Shown: in pieces, positions 36,166-63,347 of the stretch
Position numbering within the stretch: the stretch's first letter is position 1
Layout of the letters: the number at the start of each line of letters is the position of its first letter
Origin: Chloroflexota bacterium
GTDB lineage: Bacteria; Chloroflexota; Anaerolineae; Aggregatilineales; J027
Direction: 5' to 3'
Length of the DNA stretch: 64,000 nt
NCBI GenBank assembly: GCA_016234595.1
Contig: JACRBG010000011.1
Location: forward strand, 37,227-101,226
Position numbers and translations under genes: made by a program
Notes under the pieces: generated by a model
Told to the model about the DNA's origin: nothing
The model's database searches: none
Seen by the model: the letters and a program-made list of their open reading frames with translations, nothing else

Positions 36166-36346
36166 CCTCTCCTAAAATAATATGTACGGGTGAGTTTCAT
36201 TGAATTAGCACATAGAATAACATATCAATTGTGCCACAGATTTAATTTTAGTACAATTTTACACTAGGCAGTTTTCTCAAAAAAAGACCATAATGTCTTT
36301 AATAATAACTATAATTCATCGGCATCTTGGCTAGAAACTAAACTCT

Positions 36347-38065: not shown

Positions 38066-38215
38066 TGAGTATTTATGGAGAACAAAAATAGGATTCAAAT
38101 GATTCTGGGTTATTTATGAAATTGAAATTGCACTTTGATCATTTGGATTTGTTTTCATTTCTCCATTAGTGATTCACAACGTTTTGATAAAAGTGTTCAG
38201 GAGATAGATATCCTA

Positions 38216-40126: not shown

Positions 40127-40144
40127 AAGATTTTTGAGGAATTG

Positions 40145-42187: not shown

Positions 42188-42392
42188 AATTTAACCTAAT
42201 CACAGATCTCATAAAATTACAATATAGGTGTTATTGATATTTGCCTCCTTGTTCAATGGTAGTGAATAATTTCTATTGTTTTCCCTAATTGACATGGACC
42301 CTATGCATCTAAAATCGAGGTGTTTGCAAAAATCTAAGCCGGAACTTTTATTCTTTTGATTAATACTCAATAGGGATTGAGGAATCGTAATA

Positions 42393-49187: not shown

Positions 49188-49196
49188 TTGTGCACC

Positions 49197-50606
49197 TTAA
49201 TCCGTTTTTGCCAGAATGACTTTACAAACGACCAGTCGAAATTTGCCATTGGATTCACGTGGCACTTTATCCACCTCTTCAAATTGCACATTAACTTTCC
49301 CCATACGATCATACAACCGTTTGAGAATAAGATTTTTGTGGTTTTCGTGGAAGTCTCTCGCAGGAACATATAAAATTCGTACTTCGTTAATTTGTTCTTG
49401 GACTACCTGTGCCTCAACGATAGGGAGACCAGAAAACAAGGGGTTAAAATACCAAACTCGATGACCTTCAGGCGAAATCAACATATCAGTCTGCCGCCCT
49501 TCAATGCGGCTAATTTGTGGGTAGGCAAATTCGGAAGTATTTGAAGATACAGCTTTAACGGAGCCTCGATCGCCTACTTCGTAACGAATAAGAGGCATAT
49601 CTGGATTTAGCAATCCAGTACAAATAAAGCGCCCGACTTCGCCTGATTTTGCGGGAACATCAATTTCGTCTTGGAAAACTTCTATAATGCCCATTTCGGG
49701 CCAAATATGCAATAAATCAGCCCCGGTATTCGGATGCTCACTAGCGCAAGCCACTAATTCCACCATACCATACGTTTGGCAGGTCCGACAATTTAACCCC
49801 CATTCGATAATTTGACGTTGCCACGAGTTCAATCCCTCTGCGTTGGTGACCACTAATTTCAATGTTGGCGGTGATAATAGGCCTAGTTCATGAATTTGCT
49901 GAGCCAGATAAGTGATTGAGGCAGTGTAGGCGACTATGTTGGTAATCTTATGTTGATTAATGGTATTCAAATAGACTGGAGCCGTATGGCGACTAATATG
50001 GTTGGTTGAAAAATAAGTTTGGTGAAGTGCATAGTTTTTTACCCAGTACGGGGGGTGACTTGCCTGAGCCTTAATTACTAATTGCCCTCCCATTGTGGCC
50101 CACGGCTCGTAACGACTTACCCCATGCCAGCGTCGTGTACGGGCCTCAAATATGGCATAACTCATGATGTTGGTCTCACGACTCAGCCACACTTTGAGAG
50201 GGGTGCCTGTAGTGCCACCTGTGCGATCTGCAAGTAATGCTTTGACAGATTGGTCATCTGCAATAAAAGCTTCTGGATTGGCGCGGATATCCTCTTTTTT
50301 TAAAATCGGCCAGTTTTCAAGAATTTCCCAAGAAGCTTTGTCTCCCAATCGACGACGGTCTGACCATTGGCGCTTGTAATAGGGTACCTGTGTTGCTGCA
50401 CGATGTAAGATAGATGCCATTCGGTCTTCTTGGTAACATTTCCACTGTATTGCTGACCATTTATCCCGATCAAGGATTTCTGTTACTAGGGCTTCTGCTC
50501 GCGAGCTATATCGCTGGTGAGCTAATGCTACTCCGCGTCCAGTGGCTATTAAATCGCGCATAAACGAGGGTGAACGATGATATAGTGGCAACAAGCGGTT
50601 TATCAT
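49197..50606 (-). CDS. CapK / phenylacetate-CoA ligase-like adenylating enzyme
   Basis: TGGTTGTP, YGMVE, PLIRYEVGD, IEGR. Confidence 0.9.
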   Translation of the reverse strand: MINRLLPLYHRSPSFMRDLIATGRGVALAHQRYSSRAEALVTEILDRDKWSAIQWKCYQEDRMASILHRAATQVPYYKRQWSDRRRLGDKASWEILENWPILKKEDIRANPEAFIADDQSVKALLADRTGGTTGTPLKVWLSRETNIMSYAIFEARTRRWHGVSRYEPWATMGGQLVIKAQASHPPYWVKNYALHQTYFSTNHISRHTAPVYLNTINQHKITNIVAYTASITYLAQQIHELGLLSPPTLKLVVTNAEGLNSWQRQIIEWGLNCRTCQTYGMVELVACASEHPNTGADLLHIWPEMGIIEVFQDEIDVPAKSGEVGRFICTGLLNPDMPLIRYEVGDRGSVKAVSSNTSEFAYPQISRIEGRQTDMLISPEGHRVWYFNPLFSGLPIVEAQVVQEQINEVRILYVPARDFHENHKNLILKRLYDRMGKVNVQFEEVDKVPRESNGKFRLVVCKVILAKTD

Positions 50607-51667
50607 TTTGTTATTACCTCTTCAAGGAGATTTTCCCATTGAGGCAAGACCACCGACCAATCAAATTGCTCCGCTTTTTTTCGACCAGCATCAGAAAGTT
50701 TCTCTGCTAGGTTTGGCTCATCCAAAATCCGCTTGACCGCCTTTACCATCTGATTTGAATCGTCAGCCGGTGTGAGGAGTGCGTCTATTTCATCGGTGAG
50801 AAGGTAGGGAATCCCTCCCACAGCTGTACTGATGACGCATAAACCGCAGGCCATTGCCTCGATTACGCTAATGGGAGTGTTATCTATACGAGTTGTATTT
50901 AGAAAAATATCACCTTGTGCGAGCAACTTTGGGACCTCATGTCGGGGCACGCCTCCTACCAACTCAAGGTGTTCATATATACCCAAATCCTTTGCCATTT
51001 GCTCAACTGCTTCTCGTGAATTATCTCCCTTGTCAGGGCCTATCATTGTTAATGTCACATTGGGTATATCTTGAGCCAATTTTTCTAGGACTTTCAAAGC
51101 TAGCATTGGATTGTACATTTGATGAAAAGCCCTTAGCCAGATGAGGGTGGGTTTTGGTTTAACTCTTTGGCGATATGCATAAAAACTAATCTCTAAAGGG
51201 TTAGGCAATACACGGAGTTCCCCATGATAATATGGTTGCATCTTTTCCTTTAAATAGACAGATGGTGTAGTGACTACCTTGGCATGCTTTAACAAGTTTC
51301 CAACACGTTTAGGATGGGATACCGCGAAATCTGGTAACCCACCGCCATGCAAGGTCAAGACATAGGGTTTTGACAGTCGACGGAGTAACCATATGACTGC
51401 CTCGGCCCATCGGAAGGCCATCCCACTAAAGATATCTACTTGCGCGACCTGATAATTATGACGTTGTATCCAAACCGTCATAACCATATCTAACAACCGA
51501 CCAAGGCGATTGACACGATGGGAGGTCGTAGATACTTGCCAACCTGCAGCACACAGTTGTTCAGCTAAATCTTCTGTTACAGCGCGGTTAAAGCCCGATT
51601 CCGACAGGAAATTGCCGACTAAGAGTACAGCTTTCTTATAAGTTTGGTGGTTAGGGGTTTGATTCAA
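50603..51667 (-). CDS. Glycosyltransferase family 4
   Basis: DNTPISVIEAMACG; start uncertain (TTG 51667 limits the overlap with the upstream gene; track ORF reaches 51751). Confidence 0.9.
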   Translation of the reverse strand: MNQTPNHQTYKKAVLLVGNFLSESGFNRAVTEDLAEQLCAAGWQVSTTSHRVNRLGRLLDMVMTVWIQRHNYQVAQVDIFSGMAFRWAEAVIWLLRRLSKPYVLTLHGGGLPDFAVSHPKRVGNLLKHAKVVTTPSVYLKEKMQPYYHGELRVLPNPLEISFYAYRQRVKPKPTLIWLRAFHQMYNPMLALKVLEKLAQDIPNVTLTMIGPDKGDNSREAVEQMAKDLGIYEHLELVGGVPRHEVPKLLAQGDIFLNTTRIDNTPISVIEAMACGLCVISTAVGGIPYLLTDEIDALLTPADDSNQMVKAVKRILDEPNLAEKLSDAGRKKAEQFDWSVVLPQWENLLEEVITK

Positions 51668-53030
51668 TGCTATGTTTCTCTGGTTTGATAAGCTTAAACT
51701 GAGCAAACGCCACGCCAAAAATAAAAGGAATGGCGACAATTCGGGTTGCATTGATATACATATTAATAAGAGACCATAAACTGAAGCCCATAATTAAAGC
51801 TCTTTCTTGAAAACCCTGCGCCCTGAATATTGCCTCAATCCATTTTGAGCCGATCAATAGCATCGCAATAAGCCCTAAAACCCCATGCTCGGCCAATAAG
51901 CGGCTATATTCATTATGGGCGGCAGTTTCAAAACCAACGATGTTAGTAATTTTGGACTTTGAAAGCCCCACTCCCACTCCGAATGGATTCCTTTTGAACA
52001 ACTGTAATTCAGCATTCATGATAATTCCTCTACGGCTGTCGGCTGGGTCTTGGAAGCGCTCTCTCAGTTGATTATCGGTGTAGTTATCCAGAATCGGAAA
52101 TAAATACTGGTACGCTAATAATAATATAAATAATAAGATCAATATAACAAGTAAATGACGTCTAAGTAAGTGCGCTGCAATGACGAAAATAACTACCGTA
52201 GCTGAAAATATCCCGCCGCGAGAAAAGGTAAGAAGAGTTTGACCTGTAATCCAAATTACTAGAAATATCCATAACAATTTCATTTTTTTGTTTTCAAACA
52301 ATAATACTATTAAAATAAATATAGCAGTAATTGCCAGACTGAATGATGCTGACACCTGATTTGGCCCAAAACCGCCACTTGCCTGCCAGTTTGACTCTGT
52401 TGTCCATGTAAGGTTTTCATTGGTTAATAGCCCATAAAGTGCATAAACGCCCATGGAAATTGCTGGTGCTATAAGACATATTAGAAATAATTTGAGGTTT
52501 TTTGAGTTAATCGTAACTTCAGAAAAAAACCAAATGCTCATTGCAAGCACAATAGGCCCAGAAAGATTTGCAGCCAATAATTCCCGTACGTCAAAAAAGT
52601 CACCGCTTGAGAGCGTTAGGAATGCGGCGGGCATAAGCATCATTAGATACCCAAATACAAATATAGGCATTTTGATAGACCTGTACCGGAAAATTTCGAT
52701 GATCAGAGTGAGTAGAACGAGGTATTTGCCAGACTCCCAAAAGATAATACTATGAGTAGCTCTCCAGAAAACCTCAGACCCTGCGACATAAAACAAAAAA
52801 GCTGTTACATAGGTTTTATTTGGATACAGCAATACCCGTGTTAACCCTACGGCAAAAATCGTGATATAGATGGGGCGTGCGAAAGAGGGAGCAACAGACA
52901 CTAATATACCTAGCCCAAAATGGGCTATTAGCACAGCAATTACGACCAAATCGGAGTCAAGACGATTCAAGGAAGGGATTTGAGTTTTGGCGTCAATTTG
53001 GGCATGTGGGCTTAACGTGCGTTCGGCCAT
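51651..53030 (-). CDS. O-antigen ligase / Wzy polymerase-like membrane protein
   Basis: More than ten TM segments, TFSRGG, FGVGVG, AHNEY...LAEHGVLG. Confidence 0.85.
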   Translation of the reverse strand: MAERTLSPHAQIDAKTQIPSLNRLDSDLVVIAVLIAHFGLGILVSVAPSFARPIYITIFAVGLTRVLLYPNKTYVTAFLFYVAGSEVFWRATHSIIFWESGKYLVLLTLIIEIFRYRSIKMPIFVFGYLMMLMPAAFLTLSSGDFFDVRELLAANLSGPIVLAMSIWFFSEVTINSKNLKLFLICLIAPAISMGVYALYGLLTNENLTWTTESNWQASGGFGPNQVSASFSLAITAIFILIVLLFENKKMKLLWIFLVIWITGQTLLTFSRGGIFSATVVIFVIAAHLLRRHLLVILILLFILLLAYQYLFPILDNYTDNQLRERFQDPADSRRGIIMNAELQLFKRNPFGVGVGLSKSKITNIVGFETAAHNEYSRLLAEHGVLGLIAMLLIGSKWIEAIFRAQGFQERALIMGFSLWSLINMYINATRIVAIPFIFGVAFAQFKLIKPEKHSIESNP

Positions 53031-53031
53031 A

Positions 53032-54162
53032 TCAGATCTCCAATAATTTCCTTACTGCTTGCAAGTAAGATGTGTAGCTAAATTCACTAGCAAAGCTCAT
53101 GGCTCGGCCAGACTCCTCTTTCCAAACAGCGGGATACCGCAGATAATACTGAATTGCTTTTACAAAGCTCTCAATTTCAGTTGGTGTAAAAAACCGCCCT
53201 GCCTGTATCTTATTCAAATAATGTCCAATACTACCAACATTACCCGCCAAGGGTACTACTCCGTATGCCATTGCCTCGCTCAAAACTTTAGGCCAACCTT
53301 CTGTATCACTTAACAAAAGAATAAAGTGACCTTTCCCATAAAACTCGCCAAGCAGAGGACGTGGCAATCCCCCATGGAACTTTACCCAATTCTCTATGCC
53401 TAGTTCTTGCGCTGATCGCTGAAACTCCAGTTGGTTTTTGCCCTCACCTATCAGGTCTAATTGGAAGTTTACCCCAGCATCACGTAGGAAAATTGCTACT
53501 TGAAGGACTCGGTCGATCCCTTTGGGCTTTATCATATTTCCAACGAATAGCAATCGTAGAGGGGTTGCCAATTGTTTTAAATCCCCTAGTTTTTCGCCCT
53601 CAATCAGTTCTTCATCTGTTAAACACGGATTATGGAAAGAATAAACATGCTGGCTTTGATTAGGCCACTCACCGTTTACGGTGACTTTTGAACGTGGCAG
53701 ATTTAAATTAAGCCATATGCGTTGAAAGGTATAGGACAAGGCTTCACGTTTTCTAGGTTCCCAAGTTCCGGCATATTTTACCCATCGTTTTGTAGGATGA
53801 TGTACTACTGTGAGCAGTATAATGGCTATCAAGGGAATATTTGCCGGACATCGCACATGAATTACATCTGCTTTCTGGATTTCTCTCAAAATGGTACTAA
53901 CATAAAGTGGAGTCGTCCGCAAAATATTGAGTTTTTCACGTAGAGTCGTTCCGCCCGTAGGTGGTAGAGGAACAAGTTGAATATTGGGGGCGTTATACGG
54001 AAGCTCACTGGAAGGGGCGGGTTCATCATGCAAACATCCGATATGCCTAACTTCATCGAATAGTGTCGCTAAGATGCTCAACTCTCGTGCAGTTGCACCG
54101 TGCCCGACTATCATTCCGTTGTTCCGGTGGTGCGACATATTGGAGATAATTAGCAGTTTCAT
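53032..54162 (-). CDS. Glycosyltransferase family 4
   Basis: LFVGNMIKPKG, TEGWPKVLSEAMAYG. Confidence 0.92.
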   Translation of the reverse strand: MKLLIISNMSHHRNNGMIVGHGATARELSILATLFDEVRHIGCLHDEPAPSSELPYNAPNIQLVPLPPTGGTTLREKLNILRTTPLYVSTILREIQKADVIHVRCPANIPLIAIILLTVVHHPTKRWVKYAGTWEPRKREALSYTFQRIWLNLNLPRSKVTVNGEWPNQSQHVYSFHNPCLTDEELIEGEKLGDLKQLATPLRLLFVGNMIKPKGIDRVLQVAIFLRDAGVNFQLDLIGEGKNQLEFQRSAQELGIENWVKFHGGLPRPLLGEFYGKGHFILLLSDTEGWPKVLSEAMAYGVVPLAGNVGSIGHYLNKIQAGRFFTPTEIESFVKAIQYYLRYPAVWKEESGRAMSFASEFSYTSYLQAVRKLLEI

Positions 54163-55280
54163 ATGCTCTCATCTTTGCCCAAGCATTGGGCATAAACTGC
54201 ATACCATTGAGGCATGACATGTTGAATATCGAAATATTGTGCAACGATTGCTTGGCCGTGCTCACCACGCTTTTTTCGTTGTTCTGGCGAAATACTTAAT
54301 AATTCGTTGAGAGCTGTCACAAATTCATTGTCGCTTCCAACAGAAACGAATTTTTCTACTCCCAATTCATCTAGCCTTTTTGAGATGCCCCCCACGAGAG
54401 TGCTGACTATTGGCAACCCTGCACTTAGATATTCAATTAGCACTAGTGGTCCAGATTCAGAACGCGAGGACATCAGCGCAAAATCACATCCTTTGATTAA
54501 TGCCGGAACGTCCGTACGCGCGCCAGTGAAAGTTATTTTATCCGTGAGTCCCAACTCGCCTATTTGGGTACGACAATATTGGGCATAGATTGGGTCAGAA
54601 TCAGCCCCTATTAGTAGTAAATGGAAGGGATACTCTACTTTGACTAAAATAGGCAATAGGAAATCAACAGCTTTTTCAAAACGTATGCCACCCACCAATA
54701 CTCCAATGGGAACTTCCGCGGGTAGATTAAAGAGAGATCGTACATTTGAGGGTGTCGAATCAAAAATGCGCCGCAATTGCAGTGCATTATCAATAACAGT
54801 GGTCTTGTGCGAGGGAATACCAGCCTTCTTCGCCCAAGATATTTGCCGGGAATAAACAGCAACATAGCATGATAAAGAATATTTTCCCCATAGGCGAAAC
54901 CAAAGAGGGATAGATGGGTCATTTTCAATTCCAAAGTGATCGTGCAATATATATGGTAGATTTCTTCTTATTAATTGGAAGGTTTTCAAAAACGTTACAA
55001 ACGAAAGGCTTGATCGCCCGTGAACATGGAGGATATCTACTAAATTTGCAAGTTGGGCAAAACGCCTCATAGGTTGTATATCGAATCGATAGCGCCGTTG
55101 AAGGATATATAGGTGGATTTCCGAGTCTAACTGGCTTGCTAAGTCAGTGCGATTTCGTGTCACACAAACAGATACCTGATAGCCATCTTGAAGCGTGGCA
55201 TTAGCAATTTCGACTAACATACGCTCTGCGCCGCCAGGAGCAAGACTATCAATGACATGCATTATATGAATTGGCGACAT
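54159..55280 (-). CDS. Glycosyltransferase family 4
   Basis: GGAERML, SESGPLVLIEYLSAG. Confidence 0.92.
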   Translation of the reverse strand: MSPIHIMHVIDSLAPGGAERMLVEIANATLQDGYQVSVCVTRNRTDLASQLDSEIHLYILQRRYRFDIQPMRRFAQLANLVDILHVHGRSSLSFVTFLKTFQLIRRNLPYILHDHFGIENDPSIPLWFRLWGKYSLSCYVAVYSRQISWAKKAGIPSHKTTVIDNALQLRRIFDSTPSNVRSLFNLPAEVPIGVLVGGIRFEKAVDFLLPILVKVEYPFHLLLIGADSDPIYAQYCRTQIGELGLTDKITFTGARTDVPALIKGCDFALMSSRSESGPLVLIEYLSAGLPIVSTLVGGISKRLDELGVEKFVSVGSDNEFVTALNELLSISPEQRKKRGEHGQAIVAQYFDIQHVMPQWYAVYAQCLGKDESI

Positions 55281-55404
55281 GAAAATATCACCCCGGTCTG
55301 TATATTAAGAAACCATCAGATCTTATTTCGCTTTTCCTAAATGTTTTTATTATAATTTGAGATGGAATATTAAAGAAACAATCAAACTGTCATTGAAAGT
55401 ACAA

Positions 55405-56064
55405 ATGGATCAGTCTATTGTTCAACGAGAAATTGTTGTTCAAGATCTCACTCAAATTGCTATTGTACACCAAGCGGCATTCCCAGATAGTGCCCTAACC
55501 GGATTAGGTCGCCAAACGATTCAACGTTACTACTATTGGCTGTTGTCAGGCTCACACCCCCTAATAATTGCACGTGGAGTTGAGGTGGATGGTAAAATAG
55601 CGGGTTTTATTTTTGCAGGCAAATTTCAGGGGGCGACCACAGGATTTGTTTTGCGAAACAAGTTTTTTCTTGCTTTTTCTGTTTTTTTCCACATTGGCTT
55701 GCTTCGTAAACCGATTTTCCGCCGACGGCTGCGGACGGGATTAAGGCTGTTGCGCTATCGGTTACTAAAAAAACCCTTGCCTCGAGCAGAAATATCAGGT
55801 CATCCTGAATCATTAAAATTTATGCACATTCCATATTGCAGTGTCCTAGCCATCGCTGTTGACCCAAATCAACAACGTGAAGGATTGGGATGGTCTTTGA
55901 TGAAGTACGTAGAGAGAATAGCTCACGAAAAGCATTATTTACAAATGCGTTTAACTGTTTTTGAGCACAACAAATCGGCAATCCAGTTTTATCAGAAGCA
56001 TGGGTATCAAGTATTTTATCAAGATGGAGAATATCTTGTTTTAGGTAAAAACTTGGTACACTAA
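55405..56064 (+). CDS. GNAT family N-acetyltransferase
   Basis: LAIAVDPNQQREGLG, FYQKHGY. Confidence 0.85.
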   Translation: MDQSIVQREIVVQDLTQIAIVHQAAFPDSALTGLGRQTIQRYYYWLLSGSHPLIIARGVEVDGKIAGFIFAGKFQGATTGFVLRNKFFLAFSVFFHIGLLRKPIFRRRLRTGLRLLRYRLLKKPLPRAEISGHPESLKFMHIPYCSVLAIAVDPNQQREGLGWSLMKYVERIAHEKHYLQMRLTVFEHNKSAIQFYQKHGYQVFYQDGEYLVLGKNLVH

Positions 56065-56076
56065 GCATGGTTATAT

Positions 56077-56634
56077 TTATTCGGAAGGAGGCCTATTGAC
56101 TAATTTTGCAGGGACTCCTACCAGTACACCATCACTCTCGGCATTATTTACTACTACTGCCCCAGCTCCAATCCGTACATTATTTCCAATCTGAACTGGC
56201 CCAATGATTATGGCATTAGCGCCCAAGTCAACATTATCCCCGATTTTAATATCTCCTAAATTTAGTCGTTTGCTTGCCCCAATACAGTTGCCCCCAGTTA
56301 GAATCAAGTTATGGCCTGCTATAGTATATTTGGAGACTACAACACCCAGTGTGGGATGCAGCACGACCAATCCCGGACCAATTTCAGCCTCATAGTGAAT
56401 TTCACAGTTTCCACGCCAAGGCCGTGTTAAGAATAAAAGTGGAGATATTGCTAAACGAATTATTTTCCATTTGTTGCCAAATATAAGGTAACAAAAGCGG
56501 TCAACGCGATAACTGCAGACCACCCAAAAAGCACTAGTGAACCAGATCGTAAACCATCGCCACCAATGATGATTTATTATGAAGCCTACCTCATAACCAA
56601 GGTGGCTCAATTGCTCAAAAGGGCGCGGTTTCAT
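56077..56634 (-). CDS. Hexapeptide-repeat (LbH) O-acetyltransferase, CysE-like
   Basis: IGDNVDLGANAIIIGPVQIGNNVRIGAGAVV, GVPAK. Confidence 0.88.
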   Translation of the reverse strand: MKPRPFEQLSHLGYEVGFIINHHWWRWFTIWFTSAFWVVCSYRVDRFCYLIFGNKWKIIRLAISPLLFLTRPWRGNCEIHYEAEIGPGLVVLHPTLGVVVSKYTIAGHNLILTGGNCIGASKRLNLGDIKIGDNVDLGANAIIIGPVQIGNNVRIGAGAVVVNNAESDGVLVGVPAKLVNRPPSE

Positions 56635-58606
56635 GGGGCAATTCTCTTTTAGCAATATCCTCTGCCAACAGATTGCCACTCAAGCGATGGTAATCTAGGG
56701 CTTGAGCGGGTGTGCCACAGGCGGGGAGTCCTTCTATAGCGAATTTATGAAACGATTTTCTTTCTAGAAGATTTAAGCGTACAAGAGCATTTAGAAGAAA
56801 ATCTCCCAATCCCCCAATAGGAGCATGGTCATCCAGAACGTAAATCGCTGGACATTCTGCCACCGTAACCATTAACCATTCATCGTCCACTCGGTTCAAC
56901 CACGCCATATTTACCACTTTGAGGCGAATGCCTCGTATTGCTAAAATATCGCTTGACAAAAGTGCCTCGTGCAGCATTACTGGGCCGTAGGCAAATAAGA
57001 CAGCATCCGCCCCATCGCGTAGAATTGCACCACGGCCCACTTGGCATTGATAATCTATTGGTAGGGCAATTAAGCGGGGTGACGGCCCAATTGCCAAACG
57101 AATCATAACGCTTTCAGATGTTTGGTTGATAGCATAATCGACCATGAGGCGAGTTTCAGTGGCATTTCCCGGTTGAACAATTACCATGTTGGGCAGTGCT
57201 CCAAATAAGGAAATATCTCGGATGCTCTGATGGGATCTTCCTGGCCCCGCTGGAATTAATCCTGCAAAATTGCAACCATAAATGATTTTGCGTTTTTCAG
57301 TAGTGGCATTATAGATTTGCTCGTTAGCACGTGCGGCAAGAAAGCTGGCAAACGAATTGACTACTGGCAACAAGCCTTGTGAGGCGATACCCGCTGCCAT
57401 CGAAACCATGTCTTGTTCCGCGATACCATTTTCAACAAATCGCGCTGGGTAGGCTGCCTCAAACTCCCGAATTTTGCAGTCAATCGCAAGGTCAGCATCC
57501 AAAACAACCAAATCTTTTCGTTTGGCCCCAATTTCTACCAGTGCCTCGCCGTAGGCTTTGGTGACATATTCATCGGATACCGTGCTAGTTGTTTTAGGTT
57601 CGGGGGATACGCTTTCTAAGGTGACAGGCTCTAACCCCGCCTCTTGCAGGCGTTCATTAATTCTCAATAGCACTTCTCGATAGGCGGCAGTAAAGGCCTC
57701 ATCATCTGGTGCACCTGCGTGCCAAGGATATAACCCTCCGTTGTTGGCTAGGGCAAACGGGTGTTCCATAAACGACACCCCGCGCCCCTTGATGGTATCG
57801 GCAATCAGGATTTTGGGGCGGTCATGAATGTTCGCAAAATCTTCAAAAACTTGGGCGAGGGCTGCGAAATCATGCCCGTCACACCGCGCTACCTGCCAGC
57901 CAAATGCTGCAAATTTGGCCTCAAGGTCGCCAATGTTGATAATCTCGCTCACTAATTTATCGGACTGGACTTTATTGTTATCCACAATCACGGTGAGGTT
58001 GCCGATGTGTTGATGGGCCGCTGTCTGAAGCGCCTCATAATTTTGGCCCTCTTGCCATTCTCCATCCCCTGTCAAAACAAAAACCCTGCTCGGAAGGCCC
58101 TTCAATCGTTTGGCCCATGCCATACCCTTGCCTTTGGAAATTCCCATGCCTAGAGAACCAGAATTGGCTTCTATACCGGGTATACCGACATCAGGGTGCC
58201 CATCTAAGCCACCCAAGCGGCGCAGTTTCAAAAATTTGTCAGTGGGAATGATGCCAAGTGAAAACAAAACGGCATATAAACCGGGGACATCATGGCCCTT
58301 AGAAGAAAAATAAATATCACGGTCAGGGTCGGTGAGACCAATTTGTACTGTATTCATGACATGATAATAAAGCCATACGACAATATCCATCGCGCTGAGG
58401 CTTGACCCCAAATGGCCTGAACCAGCCCGTTTGACCCCTGCCAAGGTGTTTGCCCGGCACATATCTGCAATCAGGTTTAGCTGTTCAAAAAGGTCAATTT
58501 TTGAGGCCCATATACGGTCAAATTCCGTTTTGGGAATCAGGCTAATTTCAATGGTTTGGGGGATGATGTGAATATCTTCTGCACCGATGGTCGGTAGATT
58601 GCTCAT
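56615..58606 (-). CDS. Transketolase-like TPP enzyme, N- and C-terminal modules fused
   Basis: SGHLG, SKGH, GSLG, GDGE...DNN (TPP motif), ENGIAEQ; start ATG 58606. Confidence 0.9.
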   Translation of the reverse strand: MSNLPTIGAEDIHIIPQTIEISLIPKTEFDRIWASKIDLFEQLNLIADMCRANTLAGVKRAGSGHLGSSLSAMDIVVWLYYHVMNTVQIGLTDPDRDIYFSSKGHDVPGLYAVLFSLGIIPTDKFLKLRRLGGLDGHPDVGIPGIEANSGSLGMGISKGKGMAWAKRLKGLPSRVFVLTGDGEWQEGQNYEALQTAAHQHIGNLTVIVDNNKVQSDKLVSEIINIGDLEAKFAAFGWQVARCDGHDFAALAQVFEDFANIHDRPKILIADTIKGRGVSFMEHPFALANNGGLYPWHAGAPDDEAFTAAYREVLLRINERLQEAGLEPVTLESVSPEPKTTSTVSDEYVTKAYGEALVEIGAKRKDLVVLDADLAIDCKIREFEAAYPARFVENGIAEQDMVSMAAGIASQGLLPVVNSFASFLAARANEQIYNATTEKRKIIYGCNFAGLIPAGPGRSHQSIRDISLFGALPNMVIVQPGNATETRLMVDYAINQTSESVMIRLAIGPSPRLIALPIDYQCQVGRGAILRDGADAVLFAYGPVMLHEALLSSDILAIRGIRLKVVNMAWLNRVDDEWLMVTVAECPAIYVLDDHAPIGGLGDFLLNALVRLNLLERKSFHKFAIEGLPACGTPAQALDYHRLSGNLLAEDIAKRELPHETAPF

Positions 58607-59373
58607 GAGGAAGTCTCCGCTTGGTAAGGGGAATGCGCGAGGGCAGGCAGGGTTGCATCCCCTCGCCGTATTAACTCTTCTGCGTATCCCCAATCATACT
58701 CATCATTAATGTCAAAACCTTCGGTGTCGCTGGTCAAAAAAGGCGTGAGGATTTCCCCGGCAATCGAATCTTGCTCAAAAACGACCCGTGACCATGCGAT
58801 TTCAAGACTGGCGTTCTGAATATAGACTTTGGGCAATGCTTGATATGGCGTGCTGTGCCACGGCACCCCGATGGGATTCAATAAAAGCGGTGTCATACGG
58901 TTGCCCCGTATCACCCACATTTTACCGGGGTGTTGTTTGCATTTTTCAACTGCTCGCAATGAATCCACGCCCTCTGCTGCCAAAAACTGTGCCCATGCCC
59001 GTTGAATAGTCTCGGCTTGGCGAAAAGGGCTGGTGGGGCGCAAGATACTAAACGCATCAAACGAGCGCCCCTCGTCTTTAAGGCGATGTAAGGCATAGCG
59101 TAGCCATTCAATATCAGGTGATTTGTCGCCAGCATACTCGGATGGGCGTAAAAATGGCACTTCTGCCCTATAATGACGGGCGATATTTGCGATTTCAGGC
59201 CCATCGGTCGAGAGAATAATCGCTGAAAAAATGCCACTGTGTTGCGCCGCCGCGATGGTATAAGCCAATAAAGGGTGGCCTGCAAGCGGGCGGCTGTTTT
59301 TGCCTTGTACCCGCTTAGAGCCAGCACGGGCAGGAATAAGTGCGACAATGGTTGGGGTCGTTAGCGTGGTCAT
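58603..59373 (-). CDS. neuA: Acylneuraminate cytidylyltransferase family (CMP-nonulosonate synthetase)
   Basis: IPARAGSKRV.GKN, LRPTSPFR, DIN...D. Confidence 0.9.
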   Translation of the reverse strand: MTTLTTPTIVALIPARAGSKRVQGKNSRPLAGHPLLAYTIAAAQHSGIFSAIILSTDGPEIANIARHYRAEVPFLRPSEYAGDKSPDIEWLRYALHRLKDEGRSFDAFSILRPTSPFRQAETIQRAWAQFLAAEGVDSLRAVEKCKQHPGKMWVIRGNRMTPLLLNPIGVPWHSTPYQALPKVYIQNASLEIAWSRVVFEQDSIAGEILTPFLTSDTEGFDINDEYDWGYAEELIRRGDATLPALAHSPYQAETSS

Positions 59374-60839
59374 AATTGGGCCGGGTCAATGTTAAGATAG
59401 ACATCTTTGAGGTTGGAGTAGATGTCGAGCGCCTCAGTGCCAGGTTCGCGGGTGCCATTCCCCGATTGCTTAACCCCACCAAATGGCATATGCGGTTCGC
59501 TGCCATACGTCCCCGCATTGACCACCACCACCCCCGTCTGCACTTTGTCACAAAATCGTATGGCACGGTGCAGGTTGCATGTGTGAATGCAGGCAGTTAG
59601 CCCATAGGGGGAATCGTTTGCCAGCGCCAACGCCTCTTCAAAATTCTGTACTCGATACAAAATAGCAATCGGCCCAAACAATTCGGTGCAAGAAATTTCG
59701 GCGGTAGGACTGACATTCTCAATCAACGTCGGGGAGAGGTAAAAGCCGGCGCGGTGAATTGAATCCATTAGGCGTTCTCCTCCATGCAAAATAACTGCCC
59801 CTTGCGTTTTGGCACGCTTAATCGCCTTTAGCATGTTATTTAATTGACCCTCATTAATCACCGGGCCGAAATCGTCTTCATCCGTTGCACCAATTTTCAG
59901 ACGGCGGATTCGCTCAATGAGCATTTCACGGAATTGGTCGTAGACGGAATCAAAAATCAAAATGCGGCTGCCCGATGCACAGCGTTGTCCCGCATTACTA
60001 AAGGCGGAAAGTGTCACCCATTTGCTGGCATTTTCCAAATCAGCATCGTCGCAAACCACCAATGGATTTTTACCGCCTAGCTCCAATGAGATTTTGGTAA
60101 GGCGCTCCCCCGCAAGCCGTTGAATAATTCGCCCAACCTCGGTTGACCCGGTGAAGCTAAGGATGCCTACATCGGCATGTTCAACTAAGGGCTGTCCGGC
60201 TTCCGGGCCAAAACCTTGCACAATATTCAGCACTCCTGACGGCAACCCAGCTACCTGTGCGATTTCCCCGAAAATCCATGCAGTGGCAGGCGTATCCTCA
60301 GCCGCTTTCAAAATCGCCGCATTGCCACAAATGAGCGCCGGAAAAACCTTCCATGCAACATTGGCAATTGGCGTGTTGGCGGCAATAATTAGCCCCGCGA
60401 TGCCGACGGGTTGGCGCACCGTCATCGCGTATTTGTGGGCCGTGCCACTGGTGGTGGTTTTTCCGTATAATCGCTGCCCCTCACTGGCATAAAACAAGCC
60501 ACATTGGATTGCCCCACCCGTTTCGCCAAACGCATCTTTATGGGATTTGCCCGTTTCGGCGGCGACAATTTGGGCGATTTCGGCTTGGTGGGCCATCATG
60601 CCCATCACTATTTTATGTAATAACAAGCCGCGCTGCACGGGTGGGGTATCTGCCCATTGAGGTTGAGCGCGTTTAGCTGCCAGCACTGCATTTTCAATAT
60701 CGGCCTTGCCAGAACGGGCCGATTGACATAACACTGAGCCATTGGCAGGATTTATTTTGTCAAACCATGCGCCTGTTTGGGCAGGCTGTTGTTTGCCATC
60801 AATCCAATTGGGGATTCTTTCAGGGATATTGATTACCAT
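59370..60839 (-). CDS. Aldehyde dehydrogenase
   Basis: KAAEDTP, FTGST, ELGGKNP, GQRC, ELFGP. Confidence 0.93.
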   Translation of the reverse strand: MVINIPERIPNWIDGKQQPAQTGAWFDKINPANGSVLCQSARSGKADIENAVLAAKRAQPQWADTPPVQRGLLLHKIVMGMMAHQAEIAQIVAAETGKSHKDAFGETGGAIQCGLFYASEGQRLYGKTTTSGTAHKYAMTVRQPVGIAGLIIAANTPIANVAWKVFPALICGNAAILKAAEDTPATAWIFGEIAQVAGLPSGVLNIVQGFGPEAGQPLVEHADVGILSFTGSTEVGRIIQRLAGERLTKISLELGGKNPLVVCDDADLENASKWVTLSAFSNAGQRCASGSRILIFDSVYDQFREMLIERIRRLKIGATDEDDFGPVINEGQLNNMLKAIKRAKTQGAVILHGGERLMDSIHRAGFYLSPTLIENVSPTAEISCTELFGPIAILYRVQNFEEALALANDSPYGLTACIHTCNLHRAIRFCDKVQTGVVVVNAGTYGSEPHMPFGGVKQSGNGTREPGTEALDIYSNLKDVYLNIDPAQL

Positions 60840-61648
60840 GCCGTCCATCCGCCATCTACCACCAAATTTGAGCCTGTCATGTATGAGGAGGCACCCGAAG
60901 CCAAGAAAATAATTGCCCCATTGTATTCGTCTTCATTCGCCATTCGCCCTATTGGCATGTGAGCACAATAATTGGCGAGAAATTGGGCATCCTGATGATT
61001 GAAAACCCCAGCCAATGAGAGCGTGTTGACACGCACGCCTTGTCTGGCCCAATAGGTTGCTAGATAACGAGTCAGATTGAGCAGGGCCGACTTTGAAATA
61101 GAGTAGCTCACTGGTTTAAAAAATGGCTCGCCGTTTTTGGCCCGATACTCATAAATCTCTTGGCGCGGGGATACCAGCCCGTAAATTGAGCCGATATTGA
61201 TGATTGACCCTCGCCCTGCCGCTGCCATTTGTTCGCCAATGATTTGGCAGCAGAGCATCGGGCCTTTAACGTTGACCTCCATTACCTGGTCAAATGAGGC
61301 TTCGGGATAACTTTCAAATGGGCCATTTTCTTCAATCGGGGCATTCGGTGGGGAATCGAGAGCGGCATTGTTGATGAGGACATGCGGAGTGCCCCATTTT
61401 TGATTTACTTGCCGAAGGGCATTCACAATGGAGTCGTGCTGTGTGACATCTACTGCATGAAATGACAAAACGTCTTCATTTGGGGTATCGGGAAATCGTT
61501 GCGCAATCCATTCAACATCTACTCGCCTATCAAAGATTGCGACCTTCGCGCCTTGCTCAATGAGGGTTAAGGTATATTGTCGCCCCAATTGACCCATCCC
61601 GCCTGTAATGATGACAATTTTATCTTGCACACTAAACAGGTTTTTCAT
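60833..61648 (-). CDS. Short-chain dehydrogenase/reductase
   Basis: TGGMGQLG, NNAA, YSISK, VVDGGWTAW. Confidence 0.92.
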   Translation of the reverse strand: MKNLFSVQDKIVIITGGMGQLGRQYTLTLIEQGAKVAIFDRRVDVEWIAQRFPDTPNEDVLSFHAVDVTQHDSIVNALRQVNQKWGTPHVLINNAALDSPPNAPIEENGPFESYPEASFDQVMEVNVKGPMLCCQIIGEQMAAAGRGSIINIGSIYGLVSPRQEIYEYRAKNGEPFFKPVSYSISKSALLNLTRYLATYWARQGVRVNTLSLAGVFNHQDAQFLANYCAHMPIGRMANEDEYNGAIIFLASGASSYMTGSNLVVDGGWTAW

Positions 61649-62154
61649 GATGCCGTTGCTCGCTTGATGATCCGTTCAAATAAATCGCACACTTCGCGCA
61701 CTGCCCCAAAACCTCCGGGTTTCTCCGTGCGATAAAGCGCATAGGGCAGCACGTCTTCATGGGCATCTTGCACCACCATCGGTAATCCGACCACTTGGAG
61801 ACAAGGCAGGTCATTGATGTCATTACCCAAAAAAGCCGTTTGCGAAAAGGATGTATCAAATTCATTGATGATGGTAGCTAAGGCAATATGTTTATCTTCA
61901 ATGCCTTGTATACATCGGATATTAAGTTTGCGGCTGCGGACAGTTACCACCGGATTGACTTCACTCGAAATAATCACTGACATCACCCCTAACGAATCCA
62001 ATTTACGTAGACCTAGTCCATCGCCCCGCCAACAGCGCACACTTTCCGTGCCATCCTCTGCGACATAAACTGTATTATCGGTAAATACCCCGTCAAAATC
62101 AAAGGCGATTAACCGAATATTGGGAACAAGGGCCTTTATCTCGTTATGCGCCAT
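61645..62154 (-). CDS. KdsC/KDN-9-P phosphatase-like HAD hydrolase
   Basis: FDFDGVFTD, DGLG, GNDINDL, GGFGAVRE. Confidence 0.92.
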   Translation of the reverse strand: MAHNEIKALVPNIRLIAFDFDGVFTDNTVYVAEDGTESVRCWRGDGLGLRKLDSLGVMSVIISSEVNPVVTVRSRKLNIRCIQGIEDKHIALATIINEFDTSFSQTAFLGNDINDLPCLQVVGLPMVVQDAHEDVLPYALYRTEKPGGFGAVREVCDLFERIIKRATAS

Positions 62155-63211
62155 TTAGAATCTCAAAGGTGATGTTGTCGTCTTCATCCAAGTCTTGTAG
62201 TAGGGTGCGCCCAATGATTTTATCCATTTCATAAGGAGGCAGGCCATCGCCGGGGGACTTGATGGCAATATCTTCAGGGCGCAGCATTGTTCCAGCCAGC
62301 AATGGGCGGGCTGCCACTAATTTTTTGCGCATTTTGGTCAGCGGGTCGATTTCGCTCGGATAAGTACGTTTCACGCCATCGCCAAACGCGACATGCGTGC
62401 GTCGCAAATCTCGTACCATCTTACGCAAGCCGATCGGCTCCAATGAAAAAGCCTGATCTGTGCCCTTCCATGTATGATTCAACGTAAAATGTTTTTCTAT
62501 AATACGTGCCCCCAAAACATAGGCCGCGACTGCCATCGCAATGCCATTGTCATGAGCCGAAAAACCAATGACCGCATTCGGAAAACGATCTCGAAATGTG
62601 CGAATGACCTGCAAGTTCAATTCTTCAAATTCCGCAGGATAGCCAGAAGTGCATTGTAAAATCGCCACCTGCGGATTAATGGGCATAATAGCATCATAGG
62701 CACGTTGCACATCCAGCATTGTCGCGCCACCGGTGCTGATAATAAGGGGTTTTTGAAAATAGGCGACATGTTTTAGCAAGGGGATGTTGATAATGTCACC
62801 AGAGGCGATCTTGAAAATTGGCATATCCAATTCTGCCAAAAAATCAGCACTAGCAAAATCAAAGGCCGTTGCAAAAAAGGTGATGCCAATTTCTTGGGCA
62901 TACCGTTTTAGCTCGGTATATTCCCTGATCCCAAATTCCAAGAACTCTCGATGTTCACCATACGTTTTGCCATAACTATTGCGGTGCTCGTAGGGTTTGT
63001 TATACATCGCGCGGGTATATAGAGTATGGTTTTCTCGTTTTTGGATCTTAACAGCGTCTGCCCCGCACTCTTTAGCGACCTGAAACATTTCTTTGCATTT
63101 TTCTAGGTCACCTTGATGATTGTGCCCAATTTCGGCGATAACATAACAAAAACTTGTATCATCAATGTAGGTTGACCCTAGGTGGATACTGCGCTGCATT
63201 GATTTCACCAT
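62144..63211 (-). CDS. neuB: N-acetylneuraminate synthase family (NeuB) with C-terminal SAF domain
   Basis: IAEIGHNHQG, KIASGD, ISTGG, GFSAH, IEKHFT, IKSPGDG; start uncertain (63211 or 63199). Confidence 0.92.
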   Translation of the reverse strand: MVKSMQRSIHLGSTYIDDTSFCYVIAEIGHNHQGDLEKCKEMFQVAKECGADAVKIQKRENHTLYTRAMYNKPYEHRNSYGKTYGEHREFLEFGIREYTELKRYAQEIGITFFATAFDFASADFLAELDMPIFKIASGDIINIPLLKHVAYFQKPLIISTGGATMLDVQRAYDAIMPINPQVAILQCTSGYPAEFEELNLQVIRTFRDRFPNAVIGFSAHDNGIAMAVAAYVLGARIIEKHFTLNHTWKGTDQAFSLEPIGLRKMVRDLRRTHVAFGDGVKRTYPSEIDPLTKMRKKLVAARPLLAGTMLRPEDIAIKSPGDGLPPYEMDKIIGRTLLQDLDEDDNITFEILNGA

Positions 63212-63347
63212 TCCTAAGAAGTAGACGCCTAAAGGCAATTTTCTGAGTTGATTTTATCAATTTTTGTAAATAATAAAATCCTCAAATAGTATAATATAGC
63301 TTATAATGATCCTGAAAATCTTAAAGATTCGTTGAGGAAATTAACAT

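Follow-up and report, generated by a model that had tools for sequence, protein, structure and literature searches.

A conserved ulosonate-type operon with a transketolase-like enzyme in a Chloroflexota bacterium

Gene content of the operon

The minus strand of the window, by which we mean the whole 64,000-nucleotide stretch of Chloroflexota DNA that was analysed, carries seven intact genes between 56077 and 63238, and open reading frame calls place every neighbouring pair in overlap (Table 1). From neuB to the O-acetyltransferase gene the overlaps are 11, 4, 16, 4, 4 and 20–65 nt, the CMP-transferase stop being shared with the transketolase start in an ATGA overlap. The probable start of neuB is the ATG at 63211, which is where the original prediction had ended the operon. 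That prediction had listed the same genes, described them as tightly coupled and remarked on the lack of NeuC and of Pse/Leg enzymes; the reading frames, overlaps and Pfam matches bear out the list and the coupling, and no gene for NeuC, a dehydratase or an aminotransferase lies inside the operon.

Table 1. Genes of the operon and the putative glycosyltransferase gene beyond it
Feature	Position	Strand	Domains
neuB, PEP-condensing ulosonate synthase	62144-63238	-	NeuB + SAF
HAD phosphatase, KdsC/YrbI-family (ulosonate omega-phosphate phosphatase type)	61645-62154	-	Hydrolase_3
Classical SDR oxidoreductase, PtmA / gluconate-5-dehydrogenase-like	60833-61648	-	adh_short_C2
Aldehyde dehydrogenase (ALDH), NAD(P)-dependent	59370-60848	-	Aldedh
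CMP-transferase (CMP-ulosonate synthetase, cytidylyltransferase)	58603-59373	-	CTP_transf_3
Fused single-chain transketolase-family (TK) ThDP enzyme, P0001, 663 aa	56615-58606	-	Transketolase_N + Transket_pyr + Transketolase_C
Hexapeptide-repeat O-acetyltransferase, EpsC/WcaB-like	56077-56679	-	Hexapep
HP-motif GT-B protein, ~170 nt beyond the window end	C57:101392-103101

Three of the proteins recall the Kdn 9-phosphate route. NeuB matches the Pfam families NeuB (9.4e-79) and SAF (1.9e-9), scores 307 bits against TIGR03569 (cut-off 399.65) and 237 against PseI (cut-off 340), and has B. subtilis SpsE (1VLI) as its closest solved relative. The HAD phosphatase (Hydrolase_3, 4e-6) carries DxD and GNDxND motifs and reaches 112.7 bits against the NCBIfam KdsC model (cut-off 208), 99 bits against the YrbI subfamily and 82 bits against the Kdn-9-P phosphatase model (cut-off 180). 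The CMP-transferase matches CTP_transf_3 (9.7e-19) and the PseF model at 129.5 bits, below the cut-off of 205.7. In Bacteroides thetaiotaomicron the route comprises the Kdn-9-P synthase BT1714, the KdsC-family phosphatase BT1713 and a CMP-Kdn synthetase, with NANS/NANP/CMAS as the vertebrate counterpart. In the window, too, one operon unites a NeuB-family synthase with a KdsC/YrbI-type HAD phosphatase and a cytidylyltransferase of the CTP_transf_3 family and contains neither a NeuC-type epimerase nor amino-sugar tailoring genes, and the likeness to this route that had been predicted holds at family level. No member of the Epimerase_2 family (NeuC/WecB) was found in the whole genome (97% complete), which makes ManNAc-type or Leg-type precursors unlikely. 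The cassette departs from the Kdn route in that the three shared enzymes all fall below curated equivalog scores, its NeuB orthogroup is confined to TK-carrying genomes, and an SDR, an ALDH and a TK-like enzyme are integral and co-inherited.

Conservation of the cassette

We collected TK relatives from 82 loci (80 species genomes and 2 additional contigs) and identified the genes upstream of each in BLAST searches with proteins of the window. The same set of genes, in the same order, flanks the TK relatives in most of these loci, in several phyla. Of the loci, 54 are well covered, with 6.5 kb or more of upstream sequence; 49 of these have NeuB, 50 the CMP-transferase, 44 the ALDH, 32 the SDR and 23 the HAD phosphatase, the last only where the SDR is also present; in about 50 of the 54 the CMP-transferase adjoins the TK (61–75% identity). 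The six-gene cassette from neuB to TK keeps one order, with 57–77% identity per protein, across at least five phyla, the phyla and groups concerned including Chloroflexota, Acidobacteriota, Desulfobacterota, Pirellulales and others. The operon is genuine, tightly packed and common to bacteria of many phyla, and its genes are grouped far beyond chance. We found no description of the cassette in the literature searched.

At genome level, 301 genomes of the phylum were compared. Cassette-type NeuB (58–69% identity) and the TK occur in exactly the same 9 genomes, the next NeuB match elsewhere reaching at most 43% identity. Cassette-type ALDH orthologues (71–73% identity) occur in 6 of the 301, all adjoining the TK, with the next best at 43% or less. 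The SDR family is wider, being found in 35 genomes that include all 9 with TK; in the other 26 it belongs to TK-less cassettes with a fused CMP-transferase-HAD protein and a short NeuB, and none of these 26 has the ALDH. Co-occurrence of the extra genes with neuAB elsewhere, on which the original prediction had staked itself, is strong across the 82 loci and 301 genomes. The same data already contradict an ordinary operon for Kdn or sialic acid with unrelated metabolic neighbours. All six core proteins do belong to very common families, none passing an NCBIfam equivalog cut-off, but the fixed order and identity across phyla, the strict co-occurrence and the overlapping genes of the window leave that explanation very improbable.

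The cassette also varies. The full six-gene type looks ancestral, since it is scattered over the TK tree and over the phyla. A large Anaerolineales clade has NeuB-ALDH-CMP-transferase-TK, with SDR and HAD missing from the cassette. ALDH is missing in a Caldilineales clade and in the type-2 TK loci G098 and G206, and of the genomes that lack it, the 8 checked (those of Caldilineales type, L012 and the Chloroflexia pair) have no ALDH orthologue anywhere. Two Chloroflexia genomes retain NeuB, CMP-transferase and TK only. These three, the most constant trio, remain at L067 and L070, where SDR and ALDH are absent. In one Bacteroidales locus, the single case found, a class-III (omega) aminotransferase holds the ALDH slot beside the TK.

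None of the 82 related loci has a homologue of the O-acetyltransferase (Hexapep 2.9e-8; EpsC 89 bits, WcaB 69 bits, both under cut-off), which is coupled to the operon but is part of this locus and not of the conserved cassette.

The oxidoreductases and the transketolase-like enzyme

The SDR (adh_short_C2, 2.4e-42) carries the TGxxxGxG, NNAA and YxxxK motifs; its best NCBIfam matches, both under cut-off, are PRK09186 (163 bits) and gluconate 5-dehydrogenase (154 bits). Its closest kin, gluconate 5-dehydrogenase and the KduD-type enzymes, act on sugar acids by oxidising their penultimate carbon. The ALDH (Aldedh, 7e-150) has the catalytic motifs ELGGK and GQRC and lies closest, below cut-off, to the alpha-ketoglutaric semialdehyde (425 bits) and 2,5-dioxovalerate dehydrogenase (414 bits) models; its nearest relatives are the 2-keto-3-deoxy semialdehyde dehydrogenases. 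The two enzymes had been predicted to oxidise a terminal carbon as one unit. Their distributions argue otherwise: the ALDH is found only beside the TK (6/6) and the SDR in 26 genomes with neither TK nor this ALDH, so that the aldehyde apparently requires the TK step and does not come from the SDR alone. Members of the SDR family serve a role that does not involve the TK, and the SDR's assignment as maker of a ketol for the TK is not secure.

The TK-like enzyme matches Transketolase_N (8e-32), Transket_pyr (2e-27) and Transketolase_C (4e-11), and among solved structures it comes closest to human TKT 3OOY/4KXU (E 5e-60). With human TKT (3OOY/3MOS/4KXU) and the split Carboxydothermus TK (6YAK/6YAJ) it shares the three-domain fold signature, the GDG...N ThDP motif, the activating Glu and the catalytic His. 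In an alignment of 83 family members (E. coli numbering), His26, His66, His100, His473, Glu411, Asp155, Asn185, Phe434 and Phe437 are kept in all 83. Unlike in the human and Carboxydothermus enzymes, the phosphate contacts Arg358, Ser385, His461 and Arg520 and the acceptor-orienting Asp469 are replaced in all 83; at Arg358, Ser385, His461, Asp469 and Arg520 the replacements are Glu, Asp, Cys/Leu, Ala and Ile. Judged from the alignment, the enzyme keeps every ThDP and catalytic residue and has lost all five canonical sugar-phosphate/acceptor contacts. It further differs in a two-residue insertion ahead of the SHQ motif, in new conserved arginines (R463 and R503, in both TK subtypes) that could bind phosphate in a new geometry, and in always lying with NeuB and CMP-transferase genes rather than pentose-phosphate genes. 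The window's TK has Asn446-Phe447 where type-1 relatives have His-Tyr (82/82 and 80/82) and type-2 TKs of the same cassette have Ser-Leu.

The original prediction had the TPP enzyme supplying or branching an aldose phosphate. On that model the TK would act upstream, making or remodelling an aldose (phosphate) for NeuB, and the SDR and then the ALDH would oxidise the terminal CH2OH after dephosphorylation to give a full-length ulosaric acid, C8–C9 or longer. The constant trio, persisting without SDR and ALDH, is in keeping with it, and so is a cassette-type NeuB never found without TK (9/9), as if specialised for a TK-made aldehyde. Oxidising the end of a free ulosonate ahead of CMP activation also has a precedent: in Shewanella oneidensis, the Kdo8N pathway employs the oxidase KdnB and the aminotransferase KdnA on free Kdo at that stage. 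The model is nevertheless unlikely. The lost contacts (two of them replaced by acidic residues), the separate canonical housekeeping TK encoded in the same genome and the lack of a NeuC/WecB epimerase leave aldose-phosphate supply by the TK unsupported, and the cassette has no kinase, yet its KdsC-type phosphatase implies a phosphorylated substrate and product of NeuB. It is also at odds with the absence of ALDH from the SDR-positive, TK-negative genomes, with a clade that lacks the SDR and still keeps ALDH with TK, and with the secondary alcohols on which classical SDRs of this kind usually act.

A candidate route to a doubly acidic sugar

We tentatively prefer, at somewhat less than even confidence, a reading in which the six genes from neuB to TK form one unit that makes a 3-deoxy-2-ulosonic acid with a modified tail, activated as its CMP derivative. 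By a Kdn-type 9-phosphate route, NeuB would join PEP to a non-aminated hexose 6-phosphate (Kdn-9-P type), and the KdsC-type phosphatase would free the terminal hydroxyl. The SDR would then oxidise the penultimate carbon, C8, a role that its homology fits, to create a terminal HOCH2-CO-CHOH ketol. With this ketol as donor, the TK-like ThDP enzyme would cleave C7–C8, so that two carbons leave as a unit and C7 becomes an aldehyde; a TK without the phosphate pocket, in a cassette without a kinase, fits a step after dephosphorylation. The ALDH, with a homology that again fits, would convert the aldehyde to a second carboxylate, the product being a Dha-class 3-deoxy-hept-2-ulosaric acid, and the cytidylyltransferase would form the CMP sugar. 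This full sequence of steps, too, is put forward as a possibility a little short of even, and we infer every substrate, the order of the steps, the C7 product and the fate of the C2 unit. Counting against it, our own stereochemical derivation indicates that a product from Kdn would have the L-arabino, not Dha's D-lyxo, configuration, and in the Anaerolineales clade without cassette SDR and HAD the route needs enzymes acting in trans from a second cassette 30–60 kb off. Also unfavourable to it are the loci and genomes that have no ALDH, the two Chloroflexia genomes reduced to the trio, the occurrence of the SDR family in TK-less cassettes, the new arginines as candidate phosphate ligands, the Asn-Phe pair peculiar to the window's TK and the restriction of the aminotransferase exchange to a single locus.

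As in the Kdo8N pathway, the tail of a dephosphorylated ulosonic acid would be tailored through an aldehyde before CMP activation, and an aminotransferase variant of the window's cassette exists as well, as would be expected if the TK step releases a free aldehyde. Kdo8N synthesis differs in using a metal-dependent alcohol oxidase in place of SDR and TK-like enzyme, and involves neither carbon-carbon cleavage nor a second carboxylate.

The TK might instead act as a carboligase, transferring two carbons of a donor, either a ketol or a 2-keto acid, onto an aldehyde of the sugar acid and so producing a chain-extended or branched higher ulosonic acid. Transketolase-family reactions are reversible, DXS-type relatives ligate, and neither the catalytic His set nor the Glu has been lost. 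ALDH and TK would then compete for one aldehyde, however, and both the strict dependence of ALDH on TK and its exchange for an aminotransferase fit an aldehyde that is product rather than substrate; we rate carboligation slightly below the upstream model. Of the product originally proposed, the dicarboxylic (ulosaric) part was a good guess and stays plausible, and the higher-carbon or branched part, with which no result conflicts, is without specific support.

Less probable again is that TK and ALDH leave the ulosonate skeleton alone and make a small decorating acid for the sugar or polymer, for example glycolate from ketose-derived glycolaldehyde. The intermediates of TK are equivalent to glycolaldehyde, glycolyl units enter natural products by way of split transketolases, and acetyltransferases and GDSL/SGNH proteins are frequent neighbours. 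Against this, no CoA ligase, carrier protein or acyltransferase is conserved with the TK, in the other loci the PaaK-like ligase (49197-50606) is not conserved, and an omega-aminotransferase in place of ALDH makes little sense for glycolate supply.

For the preferred route, the sugar would be added by the HP-motif GT-B protein to a polysaccharide built by the surrounding locus. Two related families of such proteins (hhalign probability 96.6%) sit after the TK in more than 40 loci. Like the KpsC/KpsS beta-Kdo transferases (GT107), the protein of the window genome has a GT-B fold, an invariant His-Pro and a T-x-x-G-x-E motif, and KpsC is its best target-normalised structural match (TM 0.50, 17–19% identity) for a model of only moderate confidence (pLDDT 63). 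Unlike them, it has no Pfam Capsule_synth match, and its KpsC sequence matches are not significant (E 0.3–0.7). This conserved protein is the likely transferase for the product sugar.

Taken from sequence, the operon probably builds a sialic-acid-like sugar whose tail is trimmed and oxidised by a remodelled TK and an ALDH. If this trimming and oxidation are true, the product would be a new, doubly acidic surface sugar.

The operon and its polysaccharide locus

Seven open reading frames occupy the minus strand from 56077 to 63238, with successive overlaps of 4–16 nt (20–65 nt for the last pair, depending on the start chosen). Their Pfam and NCBIfam assignments, collected in the table, confirm the gene list and the coordinates of the original prediction. 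All the catalytic motifs that can be read in the seven proteins are intact, while none of the proteins attains the curated score of any named NCBIfam equivalog. NeuB matches the whole of PF03102 (2–241 of 241, E 9.4e-79) and has a SAF domain (1.9e-9), as is expected of the NeuB family, and scores below the equivalogs for N-acetylneuraminate synthase NeuB/NnaB (TIGR03569; 307.3 bits against a cut-off of 399.65) and pseudaminate synthase PseI (TIGR03586; 237.5 against 340.25). The HAD phosphatase likewise falls below the KdsC (112.7 bits against 208) and Kdn-9-P phosphatase (82.4 against 180) equivalogs, and the cytidylyltransferase, with a CTP_transf_3 domain at 9.7e-19, scores 129.5 bits as PseF (cut-off 205.7). 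The aldehyde dehydrogenase (ALDH) covers positions 7–461 of 461 of PF00171 (Aldedh; 7e-150) and carries the catalytic ELGGK and GQRC motifs of its superfamily; the alpha-ketoglutaric semialdehyde (425 bits against 770) and 2,5-dioxovalerate dehydrogenase (414 against 750) equivalogs are its nearest models only.

A synthase, a KdsC/YrbI-family phosphatase and a CMP-synthetase, the three enzyme families of a Kdn-type 9-phosphate route, are all present and translationally coupled. Enzymes for Neu5Ac, Leg or Pse precursors (a NeuC-type epimerase, or the dehydratase/aminotransferase/N-acetyltransferase set) are absent from the operon, and the Epimerase_2 family (NeuC/WecB) has no member in the genome, a 5.2-Mb, 97%-complete assembly of a Chloroflexota (Anaerolineae) bacterium, of which the window covers G000:C57:37227-101226. 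A PglF-like dehydratase gene and DegT genes belong to other operons, over 15 kb away. Promoter and terminator scans gave sites no more numerous than in shuffled sequence. Elsewhere in the genome, a 384-aa ORF also matches the NeuB family, though weakly (45.5 bits).

The operon sits within a polysaccharide locus beginning near 30 kb and continuing past the window end. Parts of a Wzy pathway and an ABC-2/Wzt exporter occur together in this locus, so two assembly routes are encoded side by side. The G+C content is 0.41–0.46 over the glycosyltransferase genes (36000–56000) as against 0.50 in the cassette, i.e. the first six operon genes (58000–62000), a value near the 0.48–0.53 of the window's opening 30 kb; by this measure the locus appears to be a mosaic. 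Mid-locus lies the gene of a protein that begins with a TIR domain and ends with a bacterial SH3 domain; the next ORF, of 431 aa, has no Pfam match. A PaaK/CapK-like adenylate-forming ligase, recognised by its match to PDB 4R1L (E 8e-19) and without a Pfam match, suggests that the polymer is decorated with acyl or amide groups.

Features of the operon, the surrounding locus and related sites (window positions unless a contig or fetched locus is named)
Feature	Position	Strand	Assignment or size
NeuB with SAF domain	operon gene 1	-	Pfam, NCBIfam
KdsC/YrbI-type HAD phosphatase	operon gene 2	-	Pfam, NCBIfam
Classical SDR	operon gene 3	-	Pfam, NCBIfam
Aldehyde dehydrogenase	operon gene 4	-	Pfam, NCBIfam
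CTP_transf_3 cytidylyltransferase	operon gene 5	-	Pfam, NCBIfam
Fused three-domain transketolase	operon gene 6, 56615-58606	-	Pfam, NCBIfam; 663 aa
Hexapeptide O-acetyltransferase	operon gene 7	-	Pfam, NCBIfam
Transketolase Asn446-Phe447	57266-57271	-	AAT TTT
UDP-sugar dehydrogenase, PglC-like initiating transferase, DegT aminotransferases, PglF-like dehydratase			
TIR/SH3 protein	33315-34679	-	454 aa
Wzz/BY-kinase-like protein, Wzy_C protein	36347-38065, 51651-53030		
Several GT4 and GT2 enzymes, several methyltransferases			
AsnB-like amidotransferase	42393-44270		
PaaK/CapK-like ligase	49197-50606	-	469 aa
HP-motif protein	C57:101392-103101 (L003:1393-3102)		569 aa
ABC-2/Wzt exporter pair (Wzt C-terminal binding domain)	beyond window end (L003:3099-5249)		
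WbpB/E/D-like trio	beyond window end		
Second NeuB-family match	G000:C25:84414-84998 (L002)		45.5 bits

Conservation and co-occurrence of the cassette

In a search for relatives of the window's transketolase, 8,000 candidates were scored and all passed, the best 120 listed being 61–71% identical to it. With each species represented by a single genome, 396 relatives were obtained, from which 80 loci were kept and labelled by BLAST with the window's proteins. These come from Chloroflexota, Acidobacteriota, Desulfobacterota (including the cultured strain NaphS2), Pirellulales, Gemmatimonadota, Bacteroidales and Fimbriimonadales. Most repeat the gene set and order of the window, with identities of 57–77% for NeuB, 48–70% for the HAD phosphatase, 39–73% for the SDR, 57–76% for ALDH and 61–73% for the CMP-transferase, and the cassette described in the original prediction is therefore a conserved unit across phyla. 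The O-acetyltransferase has a counterpart in none of the loci compared and is a local decoration.

Where 6.5 kb or more of sequence precedes the transketolase (54 loci), the full set of NeuB, HAD, SDR, ALDH and CMP-transferase precedes it in 16, and NeuB, ALDH and CMP-transferase in 17. Six loci lack only the HAD phosphatase and another six only ALDH, two have NeuB and CMP-transferase alone, and the remaining seven have other architectures. In the transketolase tree the full set is dispersed over the tree and over phyla, while the type without SDR and HAD forms a single Anaerolineales clade, the type without ALDH one Caldilineales clade plus locus L012, and the minimal trio one Chloroflexia pair. 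Because the variants are clade-bound and the full set is scattered, the six-gene set looks ancestral, with the variants arising by a few losses; the tree is also at odds with taxonomy, which indicates horizontal spread. The Gemmatimonadota locus L006/L023 was considered as a case of the transketolase joined to a legionaminic-type set and set aside, as its transketolase lies 413–443 nt from the contig start and the usual upstream partners are cut off. GDSL/SGNH proteins were likewise dismissed as ALDH substitutes in the ALDH-less clade, since locus L007 has both.

Co-occurrence was counted in 301 genomes sampled evenly across the phylum Chloroflexota, a sample in which counts are not phylogenetically independent. 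The transketolase is present in 9 of them, eight found by a protein search at E 1e-150 or better and one (G256:C12; L095:7413-9407) that this search missed, added by BLAST at 61% identity; counts from the protein search are accordingly lower bounds. NeuB of the cassette type (58–69% identity) occurs in exactly these nine genomes, the next best match in the 301 being at most 43%, so that the expected co-occurrence of the extra genes with neuAB elsewhere was found. Cassette-type ALDH (71–73%; next best at most 43%) occurs in 6 of the 301 and is adjacent to the transketolase in all six, whereas the SDR family occurs in 35, including all nine. NeuB, CMP-transferase and transketolase act as one unit and ALDH depends on the transketolase, while the role of the SDR family is wider. 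This asymmetry argues against SDR and ALDH as a self-contained pair oxidising a terminal carbon, as had first been proposed, and fits an aldehyde that arises only after the transketolase has acted.

In genomes without the transketolase, the SDR belongs to another cassette, whose other members are a cytidylyltransferase-HAD fusion and a short NeuB of 293 aa and which adjoins sulfotransferase and PAPS-synthesis genes; this cassette may make a sulfated glycan with another ulosonic acid. It also occurs 30–60 kb from transketolase loci in Anaerolineales and Chloroflexia genomes (L088, G001:C1:4158000-4174000, and L089), where the SDR is 42–44% identical to the window's, NeuB lacks a SAF domain and the neighbours are a sulfotransferase, a PMT-like glycosyltransferase and a bifunctional ATP-sulfurylase/APS-kinase. 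All ten genomes whose main cassette lacks an SDR carry the second-cassette SDR, which might have suggested that it is supplied in trans. On its own, that count is uninformative, as it reflects the Anaerolineae background: the second-cassette SDR is near-universal in those families with or without the transketolase.

The active site of the cassette transketolase

The closest solved relatives of the cassette enzyme are the short human-type transketolase (E 5e-60) and the split Carboxydothermus transketolase. It falls below the NCBIfam transketolase equivalogs (best NF004559, 403.3 bits against 488) and well below the DXS equivalog TIGR00204 (179 bits against 465.95), and some public records label its relatives 'DXS'. 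Elsewhere the window genome has one canonical transketolase and two split N-terminal halves. We aligned 83 cassette transketolases of the window's type (type 1) with E. coli TktA and this canonical enzyme. In E. coli numbering, His26, His66, His100, His473, Glu411, the GDG Asp155, Asn185, Phe434 and Phe437 are kept in 83 of 83, so the ThDP/metal motif, activating Glu and catalytic His of a transketolase (EC 2.2.1.1) are in place. The residues that contact the sugar phosphate (Arg358, Ser385, His461, Arg520), together with Asp469, are replaced in all 83 and in four transketolases of a diverged subtype (type 2). In the 83, Arg358 has become Glu, Ser385 Asp, His461 Cys or Leu, Asp469 Ala and Arg520 Ile; the window genome's canonical enzyme retains all five. 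The canonical GEDGPTHQ motif reads PAGPGKSHQ in these type-1 enzymes. The cassette enzyme is very probably an active ThDP catalyst in which the canonical sugar-phosphate pocket has been dismantled, and the loss of these contacts does not bear out the earlier idea that it supplies the precursor.

Type-2 transketolases (L096, L097, L098 at G309:C3 and L099 at G277:C121) are 45–50% identical to the window's enzyme and occupy the same position in the cassette, among partners that are 65–75% identical; they show the same contact losses with different replacement motifs. Such divergence relative to the partners suggests that the transketolase was displaced or has evolved much faster. Arg463 and Arg503 are new and conserved in both subtypes; they may bind an anion, either a carboxylate or perhaps a phosphate, two cases that look alike from sequence.

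The window's copy has Asn446-Phe447 where type-1 relatives have His (82 of 82) and Tyr (80 of 82), each one base change away from the relatives' residue. Decay of this copy was considered and rejected: type-2 transketolases carry Ser-Leu there, so the position is not catalytic, and each of the five partner proteins has 1–3 deviations at strongly conserved positions, all of them conservative.

A predicted trimming reaction and the fate of its product

Transketolase donors require a free HOCH2-CO-CHOH end, and gluconate 5-dehydrogenase and KduD-type enzymes, which oxidise the penultimate carbon of sugar acids, are the nearest models of the cassette SDR. The nearest models of ALDH are dehydrogenases of 2-keto-3-deoxy semialdehydes. 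As a KdsC-type phosphatase is present, NeuB would make an omega-phosphorylated ulosonate; the phosphatase would remove the phosphate and the SDR would then oxidise the penultimate carbon, creating a HOCH2-CO-CHOH end on the nonulosonic acid. From this the transketolase would cleave off C8-C9, and oxidation by ALDH followed by activation by the CMP-transferase would give CMP-3-deoxy-heptulosaric acid. By our own derivation, 8-keto-Kdn has the threo configuration that transketolase donors need, and trimming that starts from Kdn would yield the L-arabino isomer rather than the D-lyxo isomer known as Dha.

In one Bacteroidales MAG, a class-III (omega) aminotransferase (L075:11979-13316) follows the transketolase in the place of ALDH; next come an SDR, a HAD protein, a short NeuB and a metallophosphoesterase. 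Such a replacement points to a free aldehyde as the transketolase product. The trimming order is weakened by the single locus on which this swap rests, by the independent presence of the SDR family in cassettes without a transketolase, and by clades without an in-cassette SDR and HAD or without any ALDH orthologue.

We think it likely that the product of the cassette is an undescribed acidic sugar, activated with CMP, and that a re-purposed transketolase helps to make it. The particular sequence of NeuB, phosphatase, SDR, transketolase, ALDH and CMP-transferase leading to CMP-3-deoxy-heptulosaric acid is offered tentatively, at a little under an even chance, and the ulosaric (dicarboxylic) product suggested in the original prediction stays plausible. 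More doubtful still is the full proposal, in which the cassette would be the first biosynthetic route to CMP-activated 3-deoxy-heptulosaric acid (C7, Dha class) by an enzymatic 'periodate-like' trim: a specialised transketolase would strip two carbons from the end of a nonulosonic acid oxidised at omega-1, and an interchangeable ALDH or omega-aminotransferase would set the new terminus.

A transferase for the activated sugar may be encoded close by. Two families without a Pfam match follow the transketolase, one of ~465 aa in Anaerolineales and one of ~565 aa in Acidobacteriota and other phyla, and are homologous to each other (hhalign probability 96.6%, E 5.5e-10). Such genes follow the transketolase in more than 40 other loci. 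The window genome's member, distantly related to them, lies ~170 nt beyond the window end, and its family has an invariant His-Pro (HP) and a T-x-x-G-x-E motif. The AlphaFold model of this 569-aa protein has a GT-B fold at moderate quality (pLDDT 63), and its best target-normalised match is to the KpsC beta-Kdo transferases (6MGB; TM 0.50, 17–19% identity); by sequence the link to KpsC is not significant (PDB matches at E 0.3–0.7). As a possible member of GT107 KpsC/KpsS, the protein has the HP motif and, in its model, the fold, but no Pfam match, Capsule_synth included. The protein is a plausible candidate, and no more, for the transferase that uses the CMP sugar. The PaaK/CapK-like ORF was ruled out as the equivalent of the ~465-aa gene, being an adenylating enzyme.

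An ABC-2/Wzt exporter with a Wzt C-terminal carbohydrate-binding domain is present in many loci, the window's included. Beta-Kdo is a chain-terminating cap in some Klebsiella O antigens, and by analogy the exporter suggests that the cassette sugar may be such a cap.

Neither the cassette nor a pathway to ulosaric acids in bacteria turned up in the full-text literature searched, and the ulosaric-acid papers among the matches listed concern plants or plant pectin. Sialic-acid-like sugars influence the recognition of bacterial surfaces; to our knowledge, what varies among their known pathways is the precursor rather than any editing of carbon-carbon bonds once the acid is complete. In a 2025 review, the biosynthesis of Dha in plants and its nucleotide form are given as unknown (PMC12168206).

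The cassette is widespread and compact at six genes. A transketolase-family enzyme that is dedicated to such a pathway and found in many phyla suggests that environmental bacteria, among them Chloroflexota, Acidobacteriota and sulfate reducers, make an undescribed acidic sugar, and that ThDP chemistry has been put to a new use. Should the product be a heptulosaric acid, the cassette would define the first route to this class of sugars in genetic terms, and the pathway could provide the missing standards and nucleotide sugar. If the trimming is true, it would be a new class of transketolase reaction, the editing of finished sugar acids, and a template for the origin of Dha in plant rhamnogalacturonan-II.
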